Assembly: GCA_030583805.1 (NCBI GenBank) | Contig: CP129476.1 | Span: forward strand, 604,129 to 668,128 | DNA: 64,000 nucleotides | Direction of reading: 5' to 3' | Source: Patescibacteria group bacterium | GTDB lineage: Bacteria; Patescibacteriota; Patescibacteriia; SG8-24; DYFX01 | Shown here: positions 16,955 through 57,220 of the stretch, piece after piece | Layout of the letters: every line of letters begins with the position of its first letter | How positions within the stretch are numbered: the first letter of the stretch is position 1 | Notes under the pieces: model-generated | The model's input: the letters and a program-made list of their open reading frames with translations, nothing else | The model's database searches: none | What the model was told of the DNA's origin: nothing | Position numbers and translations under genes: made by a program

Positions 16955-17404
16955 TTACTTCTTCTTCGCGGCAGCTTTCTTAGCGGCGGGCTTCTTCACG
17001 GCTTTCTTCGGCTTCTCTTCGTGCGCGTGGTCGTGACCGGCGTGGTCGTGAGCGTCTTCCTTCTTCAGGCCCGTCTTCGAAGCGAGGACGAGCGAGATGT
17101 GGCAGGTGCGCTTCAGGATCGGCGCGGCCGAGCCCATGGCGCGCGGGCGCCAGCGCTTCAAGGTCGGTCCTTGGTTGACCAGCGCCGACTTGATGAACAA
17201 GCCGCTGCGGTCGAGTTTGAAGTTGTGCGTGGCGTTGGCCACGGCGGACTCGAGGAGTTTCTTGACCGGACGGGCGGCCGCGCGCGACATGAAGGTCAGC
17301 TGCGCGAGCGCCGGGTCGACGGCCATCCCGCGGACAGCATCAACCACGAGCCGCACCTTGCGGGGCGACATGCGGAGATAGCGGGTGTGAGCTTTGACTT
17401 CCAT
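16955..17404 (-). CDS. rplV: 50S ribosomal protein L22 with His-rich, lysine-rich C-terminal extension
   Basis: MEVKAHTRYLRMSPRKVRLV... core, then KEDAHDHAGHDHAHEEKPKKAVKKPAAKK. Confidence 0.9.
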   Translation of the reverse strand: MEVKAHTRYLRMSPRKVRLVVDAVRGMAVDPALAQLTFMSRAAARPVKKLLESAVANATHNFKLDRSGLFIKSALVNQGPTLKRWRPRAMGSAAPILKRTCHISLVLASKTGLKKEDAHDHAGHDHAHEEKPKKAVKKPAAKKAAAKKK

Positions 17405-17409
17405 AGACG

Positions 17410-17736
17410 TTATTTCTTGGCAGCGGATGCGGCGGCCGGAGCGGCAGTCGCAGCCTTGGCGGCCTCGATTTCCTTGGTGAGTTTACCGCCATGGCGCTGG
17501 AACTTGCGCGTCGGAGCGAATTCGCCCAGACGGTGTCCGACCATGTTTTCTACGACGGTGACCGGCGTGTGCTGGCGTCCGTTATGAACGCCAATCGTGT
17601 AGCCGACCATCTCCGGCGTAATGACGGAAGAGCGCGACCACGTTTTCACGATGGTCTTGTCGCCCGGCTTCACCTTGGAGAGTTTTTTGAGGAGTTTGGG
17701 TTCCGTGAACGGACCCTTCTTCAGTGATCGGCTCAT
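17410..17736 (-). CDS. rpsS: 30S ribosomal protein S19
   Basis: [19 protein letters not shown]...[13 protein letters not shown]. Confidence 0.9.
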
Positions 17737-18577: not shown

Positions 18578-19000
18578 TTAAGCGTTGGCGTACAAGTCGA
18601 TGCGATCGCCCTTCTTCAGGGTCACGATCGCCTTGCGCCAAGCGCTGCGGCGGCTCTTGCCGGCGCGGGTGCGCACGGGCTTGCCGGCGATGCGCATGAC
18701 GCGGACGTCCGTCGGCGTCACGCCGTAGACAGCCTTCACGGCCTTGCGGATCTCGAGCTTATTGGCGTCGGTCGCGACTTCGAAAGCGTACTGATTGTCC
18801 TTGCCAAGCAAGGTGCTCTTTTCGGTGACGATGGCGCGAACGAGCACGCGATAGGCGGCGCCGGTCTCGCGCGGAGCGCTGACGGCGACGGCCTTCTTCG
18901 GCTCTTCGGCTTTCGCCTCGGCCTTCGGCTTGTCAGCCTTGGTGGCCTTGGCGGGCGCTTTCTGGCCTTCCTCGTTTTTCTTGCGGTTGAAGAATCCCAT
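18578..19000 (-). CDS. rplW: 50S ribosomal protein L23 with Lys/Ala-rich N-terminal extension
   Basis: Core ...VLVRAIVTEKSTLLGKDNQYAFEV...KVKAV... preceded by about 45 aa KAPAKATKADKPKAEAKAEEPKK. Confidence 0.85.
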   Translation of the reverse strand: MGFFNRKKNEEGQKAPAKATKADKPKAEAKAEEPKKAVAVSAPRETGAAYRVLVRAIVTEKSTLLGKDNQYAFEVATDANKLEIRKAVKAVYGVTPTDVRVMRIAGKPVRTRAGKSRRSAWRKAIVTLKKGDRIDLYANA

Positions 19001-20349: not shown

Positions 20350-20677
20350 AGTTCTCTTAGGCAGAGGAACACTTAGTTATGTTCGATGCCTGTCTCCGTT
20401 TCGCTTGGGATCCTCCCCCGTCCTGCGCAATAACAGAAACAAGAAGTTCCGGCGCCGATCCTTCCGAACATGTTCGGGGGATATCAGCGAAGAAACTTCT
20501 TGCATCTGTCACGTACGCGTGGCTTGGCGTTGTCGAGACAAGTCAGGTTGTAGCGGGAACTCTCACTCTCGCGAAGGATGCATCCAGAGGTTTTGGCGCA
20601 GTAGCCACCAGGAAATCATGCCATCTTTCTCTGCCGTTCCATGCGAGGTTGAGTTGTCACTCGGGCTCGGACCGATC
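20350..20677 (-). other. 328-nt noncoding spacer between rpsJ and rplC inside the ribosomal operon; candidate structured leader or ncRNA
   Basis: No ORF of 60 aa or more on the operon strand even with alternative start codons. Contains perfect palindromes CCGAACATGTTCGG and GGATGCATCC, and C5/G5 tracts able to pair over long range. Confidence 0.3.
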
Positions 20678-21016
20678 TTACATTTTGATCTCGACGTCGA
20701 CGCCGGCCGGGAGGTTCAGGGACATCAGCGATTCGACCGTTTTCGGAGTCGGATCGACGATATCGATGAGCCGCTTGTGCACGCGCATCTCGTACTGCTC
20801 GCGGGCGTTCTTGTGAACGAAGGTCGAGCGGTTGACGGTGTACTTGTGCTTTTCGGTCGGAAGCGGGACGGGACCTTTGACGGAAGCGCCGGTGCGCTGC
20901 GCCGTATCGATGATCGTGCGCGTGGACTGGTCGATGACCTTGTGGTCGTAGGCGCGGATCTTGATGCGGACGCGGCTGGCCGCCGTCGTTTCGTCAGTCT
21001 TGGTTTTCTTCTCCAT
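20678..21016 (-). CDS. rpsJ: 30S ribosomal protein S10
   Basis: [39 protein letters not shown]. Confidence 0.9.
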
Positions 21017-21076: not shown

Positions 21077-22270
<1,194 letters not shown>

Positions 22271-22309
22271 ACGTATACTAATAAAAAAGTTGACGTGTGT
22301 CGGTGGGGA

Positions 22310-22337
22310 GTGTAGCAGAGGCTCAAAAAGCGGTCAA
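22310..22337 (-). promoter_or_regulatory. sigma70-like promoter TTGACC-N17-TACACT upstream of tuf
   Basis: On the minus strand CTTGACCgctttttgagcctctgcTACACT, about 45 nt upstream of the tuf ATG. Confidence 0.4.
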
Positions 22338-22429: not shown

Positions 22430-22891
22430 TTATTCCAGGGGCTCTAAGTAGAACTGTTCCTCCCCCTCTTGGTCCTGTGCCGCATTTTGCGGGGTGGGAG
22501 GCGGTTGGAGGGGGTTCGGGCGGGGTTCCGGCGCCAGTTTCGGGCGCGGTTCCGGAGGTTTTAAAGCTTCCGGAGCTGGCCGTTCATCGATCCGGGGCCG
22601 GTCCTGAGCCAGGCGTGGGCCGGGTGGCGGAGGCTGCGGCGGAGCTTTCCAAAGCGGGATTTCGCGTTTTGGAGGCTTATTATCGGGGAAACTCGTGGAA
22701 ATCGGCAGGGTTTGCGGCGGCGCCGGGTCGCGTTTCATGACCTCAGGCTTCCACTCGCCGACGACCAGTTTTTCGTAATGGTCGAGCCCCATGAGCACGA
22801 AGGGGTTCTCTCCCGCCGGGTCGGTGATGACCAAGCGATCCCCCGTTTTTTCAATCAGGGAGAGAAGGCGTTTGAGTGTTTCTTCCTTCAT
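22430..22891 (-). CDS. hypothetical protein: Phd/YefM-like N-terminal fold followed by a proline-rich tail
   Basis: Start MKEETLKRLLSLIEKTGDRLVITDPAGENPFVLMGLDHYEKL (ATG 22891), then PxxP-rich low-complexity APPQPPPPGP...PEPRPKLAPEPRPNP. Confidence 0.45.
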   Translation of the reverse strand: MKEETLKRLLSLIEKTGDRLVITDPAGENPFVLMGLDHYEKLVVGEWKPEVMKRDPAPPQTLPISTSFPDNKPPKREIPLWKAPPQPPPPGPRLAQDRPRIDERPAPEALKPPEPRPKLAPEPRPNPLQPPPTPQNAAQDQEGEEQFYLEPLE

Positions 22892-22959
22892 AGGCAAGGC
22901 CGTTAAGTGGCCACACTGTAGCGCGTCCGGGCCGGGTGTCAACCCATAGAAAAAACCCG

Positions 22960-23172
22960 TCACCGCGAGGCGGAACGGGGTGGCCGATACACGGTTCGCG
23001 CCTTGGGGAGCGGCGCGCGAGCGGGCGGTCGAACTTCGAGAGCGTCGCGCTTGGCGAACACGTGCTGCAGCACGACGGCCAGGGCAATCAACATCACGAC
23101 GGCCGCGAGAATGATGAACGCGGACACGAAGAGCACCAAGAGGGCAGCAGCCAGGAGAGCGAAGAACAGCAT
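22960..23172 (-). CDS. small single-TM hypothetical protein
   Basis: MLFFALLAAALLVLFVSAFIILAAVVMLIALAVVLQHVF, about 70 aa. A longer N-terminus is possible (track ORF 22960-23238). Confidence 0.3.
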   Translation of the reverse strand: MLFFALLAAALLVLFVSAFIILAAVVMLIALAVVLQHVFAKRDALEVRPPARAPLPKARTVYRPPRSASR

Positions 23173-23260
23173 CGGTGTCTCCTTGCGCACGGACGGCGAC
23201 AATGGGGATATCGTAGCAGCAAAATACGAAGAGGTCACGCCAGAAAGAAAAAAGAAGGCG

Positions 23261-23869
23261 TTAGGAAGCCTTCTCTGCGCTCGTCGACTCTGCTGGATAC
23301 AGATCGTCGATCGTCGCGTTTGCCAAGATCAGCAGGAGTTCGAGCTGGCCGTCCGCGAGCATTGCGGCCTGGCCATTCTCTCCCCCGCGTATCGCCCTGC
23401 GACGCGCGCGGGCTCGAGCGATCAGGGCCTGGTAGTGCAGATCACGCAGCTCGACCCAAGTCGTGCCGATCGCTTTCCAGTCATATGCGTGATTCGCTTT
23501 TCGCAGGTGCTCGGTGAGCTCCGGGATGCACGTGAGCGGTTCGTGATTGTTCCGACGCAGATCCTCAAGGAGCTTCATGGCCGCGTTCAGATGCGCATTC
23601 CATCGAAACTTCTCGAGCTCGTCAGGATGTGTGCCGATATCTTCGTACTCCAGGCCGTGCTCGCTGCACGCGTTCTTGAGGTACTGCAGGTCGTGAAGCG
23701 TCTCGTTCCCGCGCATGGCATGCACGCGCCTGCGGAGCAAATCGCGTTCCGTGATCCGCTTTCTGCTTTGTTTCTCACGAGCCTTCTTCCGACCGACGAG
23801 AAACCAAAGGGGTACGACGACGACGCAAAGCGCGGCAAAAATGATTGCAGAGAGAACGAGCGGATGCAT
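23261..23869 (-). CDS. membrane-anchored hypothetical protein, about 200 aa
   Basis: Start MHPLVLSAIIFAALCVVVVPLWFLVGRKK (ATG 23869), then a charged helical domain. No recognised motif. Confidence 0.45.
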   Translation of the reverse strand: MHPLVLSAIIFAALCVVVVPLWFLVGRKKAREKQSRKRITERDLLRRRVHAMRGNETLHDLQYLKNACSEHGLEYEDIGTHPDELEKFRWNAHLNAAMKLLEDLRRNNHEPLTCIPELTEHLRKANHAYDWKAIGTTWVELRDLHYQALIARARARRRAIRGGENGQAAMLADGQLELLLILANATIDDLYPAESTSAEKAS

Positions 23870-23948
23870 GAAATCCTCCTCCGATGGCGGAAGAATCGCA
23901 TGGTGTATGCGCCGTGTCAATATAAAAACGCCCCGGACAGCAGGGCGC

Positions 23949-24206
23949 TTACTCGAAGATTGCGGACAGGCGGCGCGCCGCGCGGCACGCACGCCAGGAA
24001 CGTATCCAGTCCCCGACGAGCGTATGGCATATCGCTCCGCCACTCAGCGGCAGCAGGCTGAAGATCGGAAGGAACGTCGCTTTGGAAGCGAGGGAGATCC
24101 TCGGATCCGACGCGAGCGCGTACATCCCGTTTGCGCCGAAGCCGATGTAGAACAGGCCGACGAGCACAAGAAGAACCTCTCCCAAAATGCGCGTGTGCAT
24201 CGGCAT
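23949..24206 (-). CDS. small two-TM hypothetical protein
   Basis: MPMHTRILGEVLLVLVGLFYIGFGANG...LPIFSLLPLSGGAICHTLV. Confidence 0.3.
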   Translation of the reverse strand: MPMHTRILGEVLLVLVGLFYIGFGANGMYALASDPRISLASKATFLPIFSLLPLSGGAICHTLVGDWIRSWRACRAARRLSAIFE

Positions 24207-24272
24207 GCGTGCCTCCGTATGGAAACGGTCGCATGATCGCATACGTGCGTCAACAGAAGAAAAAAGCCGACA

Positions 24273-25043
24273 CTAGGCCGGCTGCAAGGCGTTTTTTCGA
24301 TAGAGATCATGGGCTTCGCGCCACATCCGCAACGTCTGGTCCCAACGAAGGGGTTCGATCGAGTAGAGATGACAGCGCGCGCCGTTCCGGCCGAGGAGCA
24401 AATCGTACTTCAACGCGTGGTACGTGCCGACGATGACGACGTCCGGCCGTTCGCGATCAAGCACGTCGAGACTGTGTCTTTCGCGACGAATCGAGGTATA
24501 GGCCGGCTGAAGATCGTTCCATTCCAGGCTCTCAGCCCACTGACTTTCCTCGACGAGAGGGCTCGCCCTGTCTTGCATGACCCACGCCTGGAAGTCCGGA
24601 TGCTCGAGCGGCAGGATTTCCATGCCCGCGTCGATGCAATGAAGCATCCCCTTGTGGCTGCCGGACAATGAACGCTGGTAGCTCCTCAGATCGTCGACCA
24701 ATTCGTCCGACGGCTTTTCGCCTCGGATCGTCTTGTTCGCCGCATACTCCTTGGCACACCGCAGGAAGTCGCTGAGCCACTCAAGCTGCTGCGGCATCAT
24801 TTCCGCACCGATCCGCAAACGCCGTTCCGGCAGGACTCCGCCGAACGATTCAGCGATCACTTTCGGGAAGTCCCATGGGACGTCGTGGCTGTTGCCGATA
24901 ATGAGCGGATCGTACCCTTCCCGCTTCATGCGCTCGACGGCCGGCGGATAGATGCCTTCGGTGATGCGAGAGAACTCTTCCTCCAGATGCGCCGGCGCGG
25001 CGTCGCCGAACTCCTCGAAACAGAACTTCGGTGCGTACGGCAT
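24273..25043 (-). CDS. hypothetical protein, about 256 aa
   Basis: Start MPYAPKFCFEEF (ATG 25043). No motif recognised by eye. Directly downstream of fusA on the same strand. Confidence 0.5.
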   Translation of the reverse strand: MPYAPKFCFEEFGDAAPAHLEEEFSRITEGIYPPAVERMKREGYDPLIIGNSHDVPWDFPKVIAESFGGVLPERRLRIGAEMMPQQLEWLSDFLRCAKEYAANKTIRGEKPSDELVDDLRSYQRSLSGSHKGMLHCIDAGMEILPLEHPDFQAWVMQDRASPLVEESQWAESLEWNDLQPAYTSIRRERHSLDVLDRERPDVVIVGTYHALKYDLLLGRNGARCHLYSIEPLRWDQTLRMWREAHDLYRKNALQPA

Positions 25044-25138
25044 AGCTCCTCCTTTTGCCGACTGAAAAAGATACCTGGTTGAAGCTCGCATGTCAATGCA
25101 AAAACGCCCCGCGGATGCGGAGCGTTTTCGGGAAAGGC

Positions 25139-27220
25139 TTAGCCTTTCTTCTTTCCTTCGAGAATCGCCATTTCGACGTTCTTCGGCACTTCTTCGTAGT
25201 GGTCGAAGGTCATCGAGTAGGAGGCGCGTCCCTGGGAGATCGAGCGGAGCTGGGTCGCATAGCCGAACATTTCGGAGAGCGGAACCATCGCGTCGACGAC
25301 TTTCACGGCGCCGCGATCGCGCATTTCCTGCACTTGTCCACGCTTCGAGTTGATGTCGCCGACGACGTCGCCCATGGCGGACTCCGGCATCAGGACTTCG
25401 ACTTTCATGATCGGTTCGAGAAGGACGAGGCCCGCTTTCTTACAAGCGTCCACGAACGCCATCGAGCCGGCGATTTTGAAGGCGATTTCCGACGAGTCGA
25501 CGTCATGGTACGAACCGTCGTAGACGGTCGCGACGACGTCGAGCAGCGGATAGCCGGCGAGCACGCCCTTCTGGGCGGTTTCGACGACGCCTTTTTCGAT
25601 CGGCTTGATGAATTCCTTCGGAATCGAGCCGCCTTTGATTTCTTCGACGAACTCGACGCCCTTGCCGCGCTCGTTCGGCTTCACGCGCAGCCAGCAGTGG
25701 CCGTATTGGCCGCGACCGCCGGACTGCTTGATGTACTTGCCTTCGGCTTCGGCTTCGCCGCGAATGGCTTCCTTGTAGGCAACCTGCGGCTGACCGACGT
25801 TGGCTTCGACTTTGAACTCGCGCTTCATGCGGTCGACGATGATGTCGAGATGCAGCTCGCCCATGCCGGCGATGATCGTCTGCGCGGTTTCTTCGTCGGA
25901 GCGGACGCGGAAGGTCGGATCTTCTTCGGCGAGCTTGGAGAGCGCGACGCCCATCTTTTCCTGGTCGGCCTTCGTCTTCGGCTCGATCGCGAGCGAGATG
26001 ACGGGCTCGGGGAACGTGATGGACTCGAGCAGTACGGGGCGCTTCTCGTCGCAGAGCGTGTGGCCGGTGAAGGTGGACTTCAAACCGACGCCCGCGGCGA
26101 TGTCGCCGGCGTAGACCTGATCGACCTCTTCACGCTCGTTGGCGTGGAGGCGGACGATGCGGCCGAGGCGTTCGCGCTCGCCCGTCGAGGTGTTCACGAC
26201 GTACGAACCGGCCTTGATGGTTCCGGAGTACACGCGGAAGAAGCAGAGCTTGCCGACGAACGGGTCGGACGCGACCTTGAAGGCCAGCGCCGTGAAGGGT
26301 TCGGCGTCGTCCGTCTTGACCAAGACTTCCTTCGACGGATCGTCGACGTCATGCGCCTTGAGCGGCGGAACGTCGAGCGGGTTCGGGAGATAGTCGACGA
26401 CGGCGTCGAGCATCATCTGCACGCCCTTGTTCTTGAGCGCCGAGCCGCAAAGCACCGGAACGATCTTGAACTCGATGACAGCCTGGCGCAGCACGCGCTT
26501 CAAATCCGCGACGGAAATTTCTTCTCCGGCGAGGTATTTGTTCAGAAGCTCCTCGTCGTTCTCGCAGATAGCTTCGACGAGCTTGGAGCGCCATTCCGCG
26601 GCCTGGGCGGCGTACTCGTCCGGAATGTCGGTTACGTCGACTTTCTGACCGAGGTCGTCGCGGAAGAAGTGCGCCTTGCGCTCGAGCAGGTCGATGATGC
26701 CGTTGAAGCCATCTTCGACGCCGATCGGCAGCTGGATCGGGTGCGCGTTCTTCGTGAGGCGGTCGTGGATCGACTGCAAGTCCTTGTAGAAGTCGGCACC
26801 CGTACGGTCGAGCTTGTTGATGAAGCAGAGGCGCGGGACTTTGTAGTCGTCCGCGTAGTGCCAGTTGGTTTCCGACTGCGGTTCGACGCCGGCGACGCCG
26901 TCAAAAATGACGCACGCGCCGTCGAGCACGCGAAGCGAGCGCTTCACTTCGACCGTGAAGTCGATGTGCCCGGGAGTGTCGATCAGGTTGATGCGGTGAT
27001 CCTTCCAGAAGCAGGTCGTGGCGGCAGCCGTAATCGTGATGCCGCGTTCCTGTTCCTGTTCCATCCAGTCCATCGTGGCGGCGCCTTCGTGCACTTCGCC
27101 GATCTTGTGCTTCTTGCCGGTGTAGAAGAGCACGCGCTCGGAGACGGTGGTCTTGCCGGCGTCGATATGGGCGATGATGCCGATGTTGCGTGTCCGTTCA
27201 AGGGAATATTCGCGGGGCAT
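25139..27220 (-). CDS. fusA: elongation factor G
   Basis: 693 aa, [17 protein letters not shown], full five-domain EF-G. Confidence 0.95.
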
Positions 27221-27248: not shown

Positions 27249-27716
27249 TTAGCGAGCGAAGTGGGCGAAGGCGCGGTTCGCCTCGGCCATGCGGTGGACA
27301 TCCAGCTTCTTCTTGACCGCGTTGCCTTCGCCGGCGGCGGCGGAGACGATCTCGTTGCCGAGCTTCTCGGACATCGAGCGGCCCTTCACGGCGTTGGCGG
27401 CATCAATAATCCAGCGGAACCCGAGCATGATGCGGCGTTCGCCGCGCACCGGGATCGGAATCTGGTAGTTGGCGCCACCGACGCGGCGAGATTTGACCTC
27501 GACCTGCGGCATGACGTTCTTGAGGGCTTCGTCGAAGACTTCGATCGGATCCTTTTTCGTCTTTTCGGAGATGAGTTCGAGCGCGCCGTAGACGATTTTC
27601 TGGGCCGTCGACTTCTTGCCGTCGCGCATCACGTAGTTCGTGAGCTTGGCGACGGTTTCGGAGCTGTACTTGGCGTCCGGCTTGATCAGACGCTTGGGGG
27701 CTTGTTTGCCTCGCAT
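27249..27716 (-). CDS. rpsG: 30S ribosomal protein S7
   Basis: 155 aa, ...[16 protein letters not shown]... Confidence 0.9.
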
Positions 27717-27740: not shown

Positions 27741-28166
27741 TTAGGACTTGACCTTCGGACGCTTGTTGCCGTAGAGCGAGCGGCCGCGGCGGCGGTCGGC
27801 GACGCCCTGCGTGTCGTAGACGCCACGGACGATGTGGTAGCGGACACCCGGAAGGTCCTTCACGCGACCGCCGCGGATCATGACGATCGAGTGTTCCTGG
27901 AGGTTGTGGCCGACGCCCGGGATGTAAGCGGTGACTTCCATACCGTTCGAAAGGCGGACACGGGCGATCTTACGAAGAGCCGAGTTCGGCTTCTTCGGGG
28001 TCATGGTGGTGACCTTCACGCAGACGCCGCGCTTGAACGGAGAGCCTTTCGGCATGAACTTCTTCCGGCGCTTGATCGTGTTGTTCACGGTCTGCATTGC
28101 CGGGGACTTGGACTTGACCTTCACCGGACGGCGAGGGTTCTTGATCAATTGATGAATGGTAGGCAT
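27741..28166 (-). CDS. rpsL: 30S ribosomal protein S12
   Basis: Start [14 protein letters not shown] (ATG 28166), [32 protein letters not shown]. Confidence 0.9.
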
Positions 28167-28289
28167 GAGAATGGTTACAAAACGCAACTCACGAAACCAT
28201 GAGGGGTTTCGTGCTTCGTATCGCTTCCTCCGCAGCTATGCAGGATCGGCGACCATATTCACTACATCGCCGGGACAGCCTTTCCCTAA

Positions 28290-28357: not shown

Positions 28358-29506
28358 TCAGCCGACGGTGAACTCGCGAATGAGCTCCGGGTCGCCGTAC
28401 CGGACGGGCTTGAAGATCGTGAGGGCGATGCGCGGACAATTGCGCCAAACCGCCTCATCCGCAGACGCGCTCCGAGCCGTAAGCCAGGCTTGCACCTGGT
28501 CGTGCAGATCGTGCGCGATCCGATGAAAATCGTTCACGTCTTCGCCGGTTGCCGACCAGCTCTTGCTCGCGCCGATCTTCAGATCGACGCGGGGCGGCTG
28601 CGACCAGTACGACGGTTCGAAGCTGTGGATTTGTCCGGCGGGAAGCTTCAGCGCGCTGCGCAGGTCGCACATCGCGTCGTGCAGACCACGATACGCTTTC
28701 GCGTCACGCGCCAGCGCTTGGATCAGCGGATCGGCGTCGAGGTCGCGCGAACTTGAAACCCCAAGATTGCTGAGCGGTACGTGTTGCATGATCGCGCCGA
28801 GCGCCTGGATCTCCCGGCGCTCGAATTGCCGCGCGAGCCCTTTCCACATCGTTGGAACGGCATCCACGCCTCCGAAGTATTGCATCGACGGCGTCTTTTC
28901 GATGAGGAGCAAGATGCCGCGCATGGTGCGATCGCGATGCGCATGGTGTTCCTTGGTCGCGCGAAAGGCCTTCTTCAGAAGATCGTTGCCGCCTTCGTCT
29001 TTCCGCACCGATGCGTCAACAATCGCCGTGAAAAGCGCTTCCGCCTCCTCTTCCGAATTCGTCTCCCGCCAGCGCTGCACGATGATCTCGAGCAATCGCT
29101 GCTTGTACACAAGGAGCGTCGGATCCTTGATTTTCCAACTTTCGTACGTGTCCCGGTCATGCGCCGTGCCGTCGCGGTACTCAGGCGACGCGCGCCAGAG
29201 CTCCATGGCCGCCTGCGCCTGAGCGGCTTTGACCGCCTCTTCATGACGGCGCTGGCGTGCACCCGCATTGGCTTCCGCAACCGACACGCTCTCCTTTCGG
29301 AACGCCTCCGCGTGAACGTCGTCGATCGCAAGCAACAGGAGCTCAAACAGCGCCAGCGCGCGCTCGTCATCATGCCGCTTCACGGCATGGTTGGTGAGTG
29401 GGGCCCTGAGGAGATCCGGGCGCTCCCCAACCGCATGACGCTTGAACAGATCGATCTCCATCCAACGCTTCTCGCCTTCCAGTTTCTTCAAGAGCTTCTC
29501 GTGCAT
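28358..29506 (-). CDS. hypothetical protein, 382 aa
   Basis: Long ORF with ordinary composition. No recognised domain. Confidence 0.55.
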   Translation of the reverse strand: MHEKLLKKLEGEKRWMEIDLFKRHAVGERPDLLRAPLTNHAVKRHDDERALALFELLLLAIDDVHAEAFRKESVSVAEANAGARQRRHEEAVKAAQAQAAMELWRASPEYRDGTAHDRDTYESWKIKDPTLLVYKQRLLEIIVQRWRETNSEEEAEALFTAIVDASVRKDEGGNDLLKKAFRATKEHHAHRDRTMRGILLLIEKTPSMQYFGGVDAVPTMWKGLARQFERREIQALGAIMQHVPLSNLGVSSSRDLDADPLIQALARDAKAYRGLHDAMCDLRSALKLPAGQIHSFEPSYWSQPPRVDLKIGASKSWSATGEDVNDFHRIAHDLHDQVQAWLTARSASADEAVWRNCPRIALTIFKPVRYGDPELIREFTVG

Positions 29507-29614: not shown

Positions 29615-30259
29615 TCAAAACCCCAGCACGCGGAAGGCGAGGCTGGAGAGCCCGTGGATGATCGTGCCGAAGAACATGCTGTTCAAAAGCAGCGCGTCGA
29701 TCAGGATCGCGAAGAGGAGAGCGGTCGGACCGCGCGTTTCGAGCCAGACGCGGGCATGCAGGTATTTCGGATGCTGGAGGAAGAGCAGTAATAATTTCGA
29801 TCCGTCGAGCGGCGGCAGCGGGATCAGGTTGAAGGCGAAGAGGACGACGTTGACCGCCATGAGCGCGCCGAGGAATCCGGCCAAGGCGCTGTTGACCGAC
29901 ATGACGCCGGCCGTGGCCAGGGCGCGGTACGTAAGTCCCACGACGAAGAACAGGAAAAGATTGGAAAGCGGCCCGGCGATAGCGACCCAGACGGGGCCCC
30001 ATTTTTGATCACGGAGGTTGTAAGGGTTGTACGGAACCGGGCGCGCCCAGCCGAAACCGGCGAGCAGCGCGGCGAGCAGACCGATCGGGTCGATGTGCGG
30101 AACCGGATTCAGCGTGAGGCGCCCCAAGCGCTCGGCCGTGTCGTCGCCTTGCATCTTGGCGACCAAGCCGTGACAAAATTCATGAAACGTAAGCGCGGTG
30201 ATGAAGGCGAAGACCCAGGCAAAGGCTTGCAGCGGATCGTTGAGGAGGTTGAACAGCAT
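29615..30259 (-). CDS. site-2 protease family (M50) zinc metalloprotease
   Basis: 214 aa polytopic. HEFCHGLVA HExxH within a TM helix, [13 protein letters not shown] (LDG motif). Confidence 0.8.
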
Positions 30260-57190: not shown

Positions 57191-57220
57191 GAAAAAACCG
57201 GAAAGGGTCACTTTCCGGTG
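57191..57220 (-). terminator. hairpin CCGGAAAG-tgaccc-TTTCCGG plus T6 on the minus strand
   Basis: Overlaps the last codons of dut. Confidence 0.5.

Follow-up and report, generated by a model that had tools for sequence, protein, structure and literature searches.

A Patescibacteria-specific protein with a Phd/YefM-like module adjoins tuf in a split str operon, next to a proposed slot of gene turnover

The canonical str operon of Escherichia coli and many other bacteria has the gene order rpsL-rpsG-fusA-tufA. In a 64,000-nt stretch of the genome of a Patescibacteria group bacterium (GenBank assembly GCA_030583805.1, contig CP129476.1, positions 604,129 to 668,128), hereafter called the window, rpsL, rpsG, fusA, tuf and the S10 operon follow one another in the same order and on the same strand; however, a strong terminator here ends fusA, an open reading frame (ORF5) intervenes, and tuf has a promoter of its own. 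The N-terminal 45 residues of ORF5 resemble the Phd/YefM antitoxins (PF02604), whose fold acts as a dimeric operator-binding module, in that an alpha-beta-beta-alpha segment is followed by a disordered C-terminal region. By analogy only, the layout of ORF5, with a small and putatively oligomerising N-terminal module, a flexible low-complexity linker and a conserved acidic-hydrophobic C-terminal peptide, also recalls the acidic tip of SSB and the tail of the P-stalk. The latter, the C-terminal tail of the archaeal and eukaryotic stalk proteins (P1/P2, aP1), recruits translational GTPases, and the ORF5 gene sits between the genes for the elongation factors EF-G and EF-Tu. ORF5 nevertheless has no sequence or fold relationship with P1/P2 or with SSB, which adopts an oligonucleotide/oligosaccharide-binding (OB) fold, and its terminal FYLEP sequence is unlike DDDIPF or GFGLFD. 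Here, we analyse the interval between fusA and tuf, which holds four other genes (ORF1 to ORF4) besides ORF5. We consider it probable, with appreciable room for doubt as to the explanation as a whole, that this interval is a composite of two unrelated things, namely ORF5, fixed beside tuf, and an adjoining slot of gene turnover.

The association of ORF5 with tuf became apparent from a profile scan of one genome per species, covering 185,579 species, with patterns that were derived from ORF5 only and were blind to tuf. The scan returned 121 genomes, almost all of them labelled Uhrbacteria, Parcubacteria, Paceibacter, Minisyncoccota or Patescibacteria, and EF-G, EF-Tu and S10 as well as the five ORFs were mapped on 88 loci (L001 to L088). 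Wherever enough downstream sequence was available (82 of 82 loci), tuf starts 79-295 nt (median 132) after the stop codon of the ORF5 homologue. Between the fusA stop codon and the start of ORF5 lie anything from 92 to more than 7852 nt, with a median of 1850 nt (n=61 loci), and fusA was undetected upstream of ORF5 in a further 21 loci; since about 8 kb of upstream sequence lack fusA in L026, L030, L063 and L073, the gene must lie at least that far away in these four cases. The initial annotation had suggested checking whether fusA and tuf adjoin each other in related genomes. They never do so in this clade, and ORF5 always stands between them. Insertions are thus tolerated upstream of ORF5 and never between ORF5 and tuf, which suggests a functional tie between ORF5 and tuf, be it through joint expression or through an effect on EF-Tu or on the machinery of translation. 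We picture the arrangement fusA / ORF5-tuf-rpsJ as characteristic of a large Patescibacteria clade, comprising Uhrbacteria and Paceibacter-type relatives, in which ORF5 would be a fixed, lineage-specific partner of tuf.

The second component, the proposed slot, would correspond to the gap that runs from the fusA terminator to the promoter of ORF5 and is filled in the window by four units that each comprise promoter, Shine-Dalgarno (SD) sequence, ORF and terminator. Across the mapped loci, the gap contains 156 ORFs that fall into 102 clusters, 83 of them singletons, including genes for an APH-family kinase, an S-adenosylmethionine (SAM) methyltransferase, RecQ and a PGA_cap/Memo protein. A graded series of states is seen among close relatives whose EF-G is 90-99% identical to that of the window. 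The gap is empty in L010 (fusA-ORF5), holds ORF3 in L005 (fusA-ORF3-ORF5) and ORF3 together with an ORF4-like gene in L004 (fusA-ORF3-ORF4-like-ORF5), and contains all but ORF1 in the closest relative, L089 (fusA-ORF2-ORF3-ORF4-ORF5), whose EF-G is 99% identical; the window shows the arrangement of L089 plus ORF1. L001, which lacks ORF2 to ORF4, has ORF1 between genes for proteins of 67 and 90 aa, followed by three reverse-strand genes, one of them for a MotA/ExbB protein, and then by ORF5. Only ORF2, ORF3 and ORF4 stay joined, and only in the nearest relatives, and the families differ in size, with 4 clusters for ORF1, a handful for ORF3 and at least 480 for ORF5, partial combinations all being observed. 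In every case, the fusA terminator is directly followed by the promoter of the next gene, be it ORF1, ORF2, ORF3 or the 67-aa gene. Thus, ORF1 to ORF4 are lineage-restricted orphan genes in a turnover slot. ORF3 would be its oldest occupant, accompanied by ORF2 and ORF4 in the closest relatives, and ORF1 a separately acquired, portable unit. In the Uhrbacteria gaps, two families recur just upstream of ORF5, in 12 loci (L019, L020, L043, L044 and others) and 15 loci (L033, L037, L059 and others), namely a reverse-strand 188-aa SAM methyltransferase with a weak match to PrmA, the ribosomal protein L11 methyltransferase, and an APH-family kinase. The methyltransferase and the kinase may be lineage-specific neighbours with translation-related roles.

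The initial annotation had described the interval as an interruption of the str operon by five same-strand coding genes without a recognisable enzymatic motif, a description that our analysis upholds. All five genes lie on the minus strand, and their ratios of nonsynonymous to synonymous substitution rates (dN/dS) relative to homologues, 0.05-0.55 and hence below 1, identify them as real coding genes; none of their products reaches the cutoff of a Pfam or NCBIfam family. The window proteins are identical to the NCBI entries QY323_03330 to 03350, and we set the gene starts from SD sequences, promoters and homologue alignments. ORF1 (24273-25043, minus strand) encodes a soluble protein and is served by the promoter TTGACA-N17-TATCTT (25068-25096, minus strand; 10/12 consensus matches) and by a terminator composed of a hairpin and T6 (24257-24283, minus strand). 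The previously assigned length of 256 aa is correct for the SD-preceded ATG at 25043, whereas the boundary originally placed at 25091 corresponds to an upstream in-frame ATG inside the promoter. A -35 box for ORF2 (TTGACG, 24248-24253, minus strand) follows the ORF1 terminator, and the remaining features on this strand are ORF2 itself (23949-24206; 85 aa), the ORF2 terminator with the -35 box of ORF3 (23915-23950), ORF3 (23261-23869; 202 aa) and ORF4 (22960-23172; 70 aa). SD sequences of the GGAGG type precede ORF1 to ORF4, and a hairpin with a T-run follows fusA and each of these four genes; the promoters of ORF1 and ORF5 were confirmed by scanning, and for ORF2 to ORF4 only a -35-like TTGAC(A/G) box was seen. 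With a promoter and a terminator each, ORF1 to ORF4 are ordinary insulated monocistronic units in the style of this genome. If membership in the str operon is taken to mean that neither terminator nor promoter separates a gene from its neighbours, ORF1 to ORF4 are not part of it. ORF5 is set off on its upstream side by a terminator and a promoter, but with none of the former ahead of tuf, its link is to tuf alone.

The four slot genes evolve under relaxed constraint (dN/dS 0.16-0.55, compared with 0.05-0.09 for ORF5, 0.10 for tuf and 0.03 for fusA), and the amino acid identity between the window and L089 amounts to 65-74% for ORF2 to ORF4, compared with 99% for EF-G and 95% for ORF5. ORF1 belongs to a family of 4 clusters, that is, three besides its own, among 5.8 billion proteins, with identities of 54-63% and dN/dS values of 0.16-0.28; its homologues in L001, L002 and L003 are preceded by a promoter equivalent to that in the window. 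No relatives of ORF1 were found in Pfam, NCBIfam, PDB, PADLOC or PHROGs, and its AlphaFold2 model is unreliable (predicted local distance difference test score, pLDDT, 51.6). A possible relationship with ChaN/Tiki/TraB (GxxH) proteins, a lead based on motifs only (IIGNSHD, EH, SIRRERH, VGTYHAL), was dropped, as none of the 4 family members gave a Pfam match at E<=10 and there was no sequence relative in the PDB. ORF2, a small membrane protein with a 74% identical homologue in L089 (dN/dS 0.23) and a protein with two transmembrane (TM) segments at the same position in L090, had been annotated as having two such segments itself; one of them is strongly hydrophobic, while the second (residues ~44-64) is weaker, visible by eye and uncalled by the hydropathy scan. 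The description of ORF3 as a TM-anchored protein of about 200 aa is accurate, since hydropathy analysis reveals a single N-terminal TM segment, which precedes a helical C-terminal domain. Its homologues, 64% identical in L089 and L090, 44% in L004 and 31-34% in L005 and L017, all lie between fusA and ORF5, and the family is clade-restricted (three close relatives and a few distant ones; dN/dS 0.32-0.55). ORF4, a miniprotein with a hydrophobic stretch of ~40 aa according to its hydropathy profile and a basic tail, is 69-80% identical to its homologues in L089 and L090 (dN/dS 0.45), and its counterpart in L004 contains the sequence LPKART. Of the five co-oriented genes, only ORF2, ORF3 and ORF4 thus encode membrane proteins, with no membrane segment in ORF1 or ORF5.

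The boundaries of the slot units provide a hint as to how they may have entered. The fusA terminator (AAAACGCTCCGC-ATCC-GCGGGGCGTTTTT; 25100-25128, minus strand), a 13-bp hairpin followed by a T-run, is kept 3' of fusA in L089, L004, L001 and L003. A 21-nt direct repeat, CGGGGCGTTTTTnnATTGACA, found at 25091-25111 and 23915-23935 with 90% identity, brackets exactly ORF1 and ORF2, its copies coinciding with the junction of the fusA terminator and the ORF1 promoter and with that of the ORF2 terminator and the ORF3 -35 box; in L004, the equivalent junction links fusA straight to ORF3. The conserved fusA terminator and the bracketing repeat fit the insertion of units at terminator/-35 junctions, with new units apparently landing where a terminator T-run meets a TTGACA box and the junction becoming duplicated. 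Compact junctions of this kind, in which no more than 3-9 nt separate a hairpin and T-run from the next TTGAC -35 box, occur a dozen or more times in the window (for instance at 57197, 54672, 48171, 47725, 45266, 41487, 41177 and 10138, plus four in 22950-25110), which suggests the existence of many monocistronic units. These junctions may be recombination-prone sites.

Several other explanations of the gene block have to be weighed against this model. The initial annotation had envisaged a five-gene cassette, whose members would work together as a membrane-associated accessory system and would have entered the str operon as a unit. The genes are indeed co-oriented and contiguous, three of them encode membrane proteins, none has a known function, and L089 retains four of the five in unchanged order. 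Yet the families do not co-occur, ORF5 is present in 121 species genomes without the other four, ORF1 is missing from L089 and present in L001 without ORF2 to ORF4, ORF3 stands alone in L005, ORF1 to ORF4 each possess a separate promoter and terminator, and the evolutionary rates of ORF5 and ORF1 to ORF4 differ about tenfold. Because the five families do not co-occur in related genomes, the outcome by which the annotation itself had proposed to judge its idea, the cassette reading fails, and we regard a single system as scarcely tenable. The interruption of a normally conserved operon and the 21-nt repeat around ORF1 and ORF2 might raise the suspicion of a mobile island, acquired horizontally and derived from a phage, a defence locus or an integrative element. 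Such an island is, however, very improbable, given that the site lacks an integrase, a transposase and a tRNA, that the GC content of the interval (0.58-0.62) equals that of its flanks, that the repeat represents the ordinary terminator/-35 junction of this genome, and that every detectable homologue belongs to this one Patescibacteria lineage, in most cases at the equivalent place between fusA and tuf. A defence or phage origin was rejected in a direct test of the five genes, which gave 0 matches in PADLOC and only insignificant matches to families of unknown function in PHROGs, a result that also speaks against a single accessory system. We attach more weight, still well short of preferring it, to the possibility that ORF2, ORF3 and ORF4 constitute a small clade-specific membrane module in which ORF3 serves as anchor for two miniprotein partners, ORF1 and ORF5 being unrelated. 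All three have hydrophobic segments and are under purifying selection, and their order is the same in L089 and L090, with ORF3 and an ORF4-like gene in L004; but each has its own promoter and terminator, ORF3 is found without ORF2 or ORF4 in L005, L009 and L017, and co-occurrence is limited to very close relatives, for which shared ancestry alone is a sufficient explanation.

ORF5 itself (22430-22891, minus strand; 153 aa) represents a large and uncharacterised family that is confined to Patescibacteria. A word search yielded 62 clusters, and an exhaustive profile search retrieved 1563 representatives at 50% identity with E<=1e-3, 480 of them with E<=1e-10; neither the family nor the fusA/ORF5-tuf arrangement turned up in our literature searches. 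With dN/dS values of 0.05 relative to L089 and 0.09 relative to L004, the protein is under housekeeping-level constraint. Alignments divide it into three parts. The N-terminal block of ~45 residues (aa 1-45; 22757-22891, minus strand) has the consensus l.RlL.L..kTGDrlvvTDp.Ge...V.M.ld.YE.L. and is followed by a variable linker rich in proline (14%), glutamate (14%) and aspartate (8%), which in 161 of 190 sequences includes a Trp motif (KREIPLWK, as in the window, DIWxxM or ETWN). The near-invariant C-terminus reads G-E-E-Q-F-Y-L-E-P-[ILV]-E-COOH in 200 of 204 family sequences (GEEQFYLEPLE in the window; 22433-22465, minus strand), and the FYLEP motif was absent from all other proteins of the window and of L001 to L088. 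The family is acidic, with a median isoelectric point (pI) of 4.3 for the whole protein and 4.85 for the N-domain. AlphaFold2 predicts a helix-strand-strand-helix arrangement for residues 1-44 (pLDDT >90) and disorder for the rest, with values of 70-77 for the tail. The N-module model superposes on YefM, Phd and RelJ at 1.8-2.7 A, with beta1 of the beta1-alpha1-beta2-beta3-alpha2 dimerisation and DNA-binding fold missing, and a comparison of the ORF5 profile with PDB sequences gave nothing meaningful. The Phd/YefM-like N-terminus joined to a proline-rich tail, already proposed in the initial annotation, is therefore genuine, at a sub-threshold match to PF02604: ORF5 scores 18.0-18.4 bits as a full protein and 21.3 bits as an isolated N-domain, compared with a Pfam gathering cutoff of 29.8, and 59 of 59 family members match positions 13-49, all below the cutoff (best E-value 2.4e-5). 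The idea that the FYLEP tail supplies the missing strand as a displaced beta1 found no support in a sequence-level test, as attaching the tail ahead of the N-domain neither gave a higher PF02604 score nor carried the alignment into positions 1-12, relative to scrambled controls.

The expression signals of ORF5 are conserved as well. In the window, its promoter (TTGACA-N16-TACAGT; 22915-22942, minus strand; 10/12 consensus matches) leaves a leader of 23 nt without an SD sequence, and 74 of 84 loci have a promoter of the form TTGACA-N16-18-TAnnnT at most 90 nt from the start of ORF5. The -10 hexamer, TAAAAT or TAAGAT in Uhrbacteria-type loci, ends 8-10 nt ahead of the ATG at 47 of these 84 loci (short spacings were noted just upstream of position ~8000 in L007, L019, L024, L033, L039, L059, L075, L088 and others). 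A -10 box so close to the start codon predicts that the ORF5 mRNA is leaderless in most Uhrbacteria-type loci. The tuf promoter with the sequence TTGACC-N17-TACACT reported in the initial annotation is confirmed at 22309-22337 (minus strand), with a TG before the -10 box; it is nearly base-for-base identical in close relatives, and tuf keeps a promoter of its own in both subclades. As a search for hairpins and T-runs revealed no terminator between ORF5 and the tuf promoter of the window, ORF5 transcription probably reads into tuf. The tuf 5' leader (22271-22308, minus strand), with CCCCACCGACACACGTCAACTTTTTTATTAGTATACGT before the ATG, is AT-rich, lacks a GGAGG SD sequence and is almost base-for-base conserved among close relatives; it may act as a translational enhancer or regulatory leader.

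Given its N-terminal fold, ORF5 could be regarded as an orphan or 'guardian' type II antitoxin against a toxin of the Doc or YoeB type, which would be encoded at another locus or supplied externally. A Phd/YefM-type fold followed by a disordered C-terminal region is the general antitoxin layout, and the fact that Doc targets EF-Tu would suit a position beside tuf. However, ORF5 stays below the PF02604 cutoff, and none of the 82 loci has an adjacent toxin gene (YoeB, Doc or similar), with tuf always downstream and heterogeneous neighbours upstream. Moreover, the linker is long, acidic and proline-rich and ends in a proline-containing 10-residue motif, unlike the helical, toxin-wrapping regions of Phd/YefM, and a dN/dS of 0.05 at a fixed, single-copy, vertically inherited locus is untypical of toxin-antitoxin modules. 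The sub-cutoff score, the lack of a toxin neighbour and the vertical fixation at a housekeeping locus together argue against counting ORF5, despite its Phd/YefM-like N-module, among the antitoxins in functional terms, and we consider the guardian reading highly unlikely. Alternatively, ORF5 could be a DNA-binding autoregulator that acts on its own promoter, the tuf promoter or both and thereby tunes EF-Tu levels, with a C-terminal motif that would respond to a protein ligand such as, perhaps, EF-Tu. In keeping with this notion, the Phd/YefM fold binds operators as a dimer in antitoxins, the ORF5 gene lies directly on two conserved promoters, Arg or Lys is conserved at positions 8, 15 and 19, and the ORF5 leader CCACTTAAC resembles the tuf -35 region CCACTTGAC in the window. 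This resemblance is, however, not kept in Uhrbacteria, and neither the ORF5 nor the tuf promoter shows an operator palindrome that is consistent across clades. An autoregulator is harder to defend for a protein whose N-domain is acidic and devoid of beta1 and whose promoters share no conserved operator, and we judge this reading to be unlikely, if clearly less so than a guardian antitoxin.

Our best inference is that ORF5 acts as a dimeric adaptor that carries a tethered motif and serves EF-Tu or translation. The N-module would dimerise in the manner of Phd/YefM domains, and the acidic, proline-rich tether would present the terminal peptide, and probably the Trp motif as well, to a partner protein. 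Given the strict synteny with tuf, this partner would most plausibly be EF-Tu or another translation component. A more specific and rather speculative version, to which we give limited credence, holds that ORF5 constitutes an undescribed, translation-associated class of proteins specific to the candidate phyla radiation (CPR), for which the tuf operon would have exapted a dimer with an antitoxin fold, and in which the GEEQFYLEP[ILV]E tip and the Trp motif bind EF-Tu or the factor-binding region of the ribosome, thereby modulating or recruiting EF-Tu. Several points weigh against these proposals and the composite model to which they belong. The contact of the tail with EF-Tu or the ribosome, and with it the identity of the partner, is putative; EF-Tu is entirely canonical, with no unusual indels or other oddities that would mark a docking site for ORF5; and dimerisation is assumed from the Phd/YefM fold, although beta1 is missing. 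Read-through into tuf is deduced from the absence of a terminator, and L075, an Uhrbacteria locus, does have a terminator-like hairpin after ORF5. Finally, the 21-nt repeat in the slot could reflect convergent functional signals rather than duplication upon insertion.

The genes surrounding the interval are all on the minus strand. Upstream lie rpsL (27741-28187), rpsG (27249-27716) and fusA (25139-27220), the last gene of this unit, whose 693-aa product is 90-99% identical to EF-G proteins of relatives that carry the GTP_EFTU/EFG Pfam domains. The downstream genes are tuf (21077-22270), whose canonical product matches solved EF-Tu structures over its full length (E=1.9e-190), and rpsJ (20678-21016), followed by the other S10 genes. 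Low-complexity extensions are present in the products of rplV (16955-17404), rpsS (17410-17736) and rplW (18578-19000), all encoded on the minus strand: uL22 has a C-terminal tail that is rich in His/Asp and then in Lys/Ala (HDHAGHDHAHEEKPKKAVKKPAAKK...), uS19 an Ala-rich C-terminal tail and uL23 an N-terminal extension of ~45 aa rich in Lys, Ala and Glu, in agreement with the enlargement of uL22 and uL23 reported for CPR bacteria (PMC9297842). The spacer between rpsJ and rplC (20350-20677, minus strand) measures 328 nt in the window and 198-443 nt in all 69 loci examined (for instance L004 10149-10477 and L005 10123-10448), and in seven close relatives it contains long invariant blocks, with 75% column identity. 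Its RNAalifold consensus structure (-83 kcal/mol) has 79 pairs, 8 of them with compensatory changes, and L010 carries a hairpin insertion in a loop. For the GGCAGAG sequence of the spacer there are two alternative pairing partners, an internal CCTCTG and the CCTCTGCC that immediately precedes the rplC start; this choice suggests a switch by which the rplC ribosome-binding site would be concealed. With no match in Rfam even at E<=10, the spacer is a candidate for an undescribed structured RNA of the ribosomal protein leader type. On the other side of the str genes, a 382-aa ORF without a family hit (28358-29506, minus strand) lies between the rpsL promoter and a conserved gene of 214 aa (29615-30259); homologues of the latter in relatives match the Pfam family Peptidase_M50 weakly. 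The 382-aa ORF is absent at that position in L004, L005, L013 and L014, and its sole homologue, 31% identical, occupies the same position in L012; the str genes are thus flanked by a second slot of gene turnover.

Patescibacteria make up a large share of bacterial diversity and combine reduced ribosomes with many genes of unknown function. Against this background, the hundreds of sequence clusters in its family, its EF-Tu-like purifying selection, its invariant C-terminal peptide and its unbroken link to tuf make ORF5 a concrete candidate, open to testing, for a component that this lineage has added to its translation apparatus or to the regulation of translation. What is new here is the appearance of a known fold, that of Phd/YefM, in a new context and architecture, and ORF5 would exemplify the recruitment of a toxin-antitoxin fold to a housekeeping role. 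If its proposed contact with the translation machinery is real, the protein would be the functional counterpart, in bacteria, of the P-stalk tail or else a feedback sensor of EF-Tu, and leaderless expression would link it to particular states of translation. In this clade, the split of the classical str operon is systematic, and the adjoining gap is a hotspot at which small orphan units of promoter, gene and terminator are gained and lost, which makes it useful for understanding how new genes enter tiny genomes.

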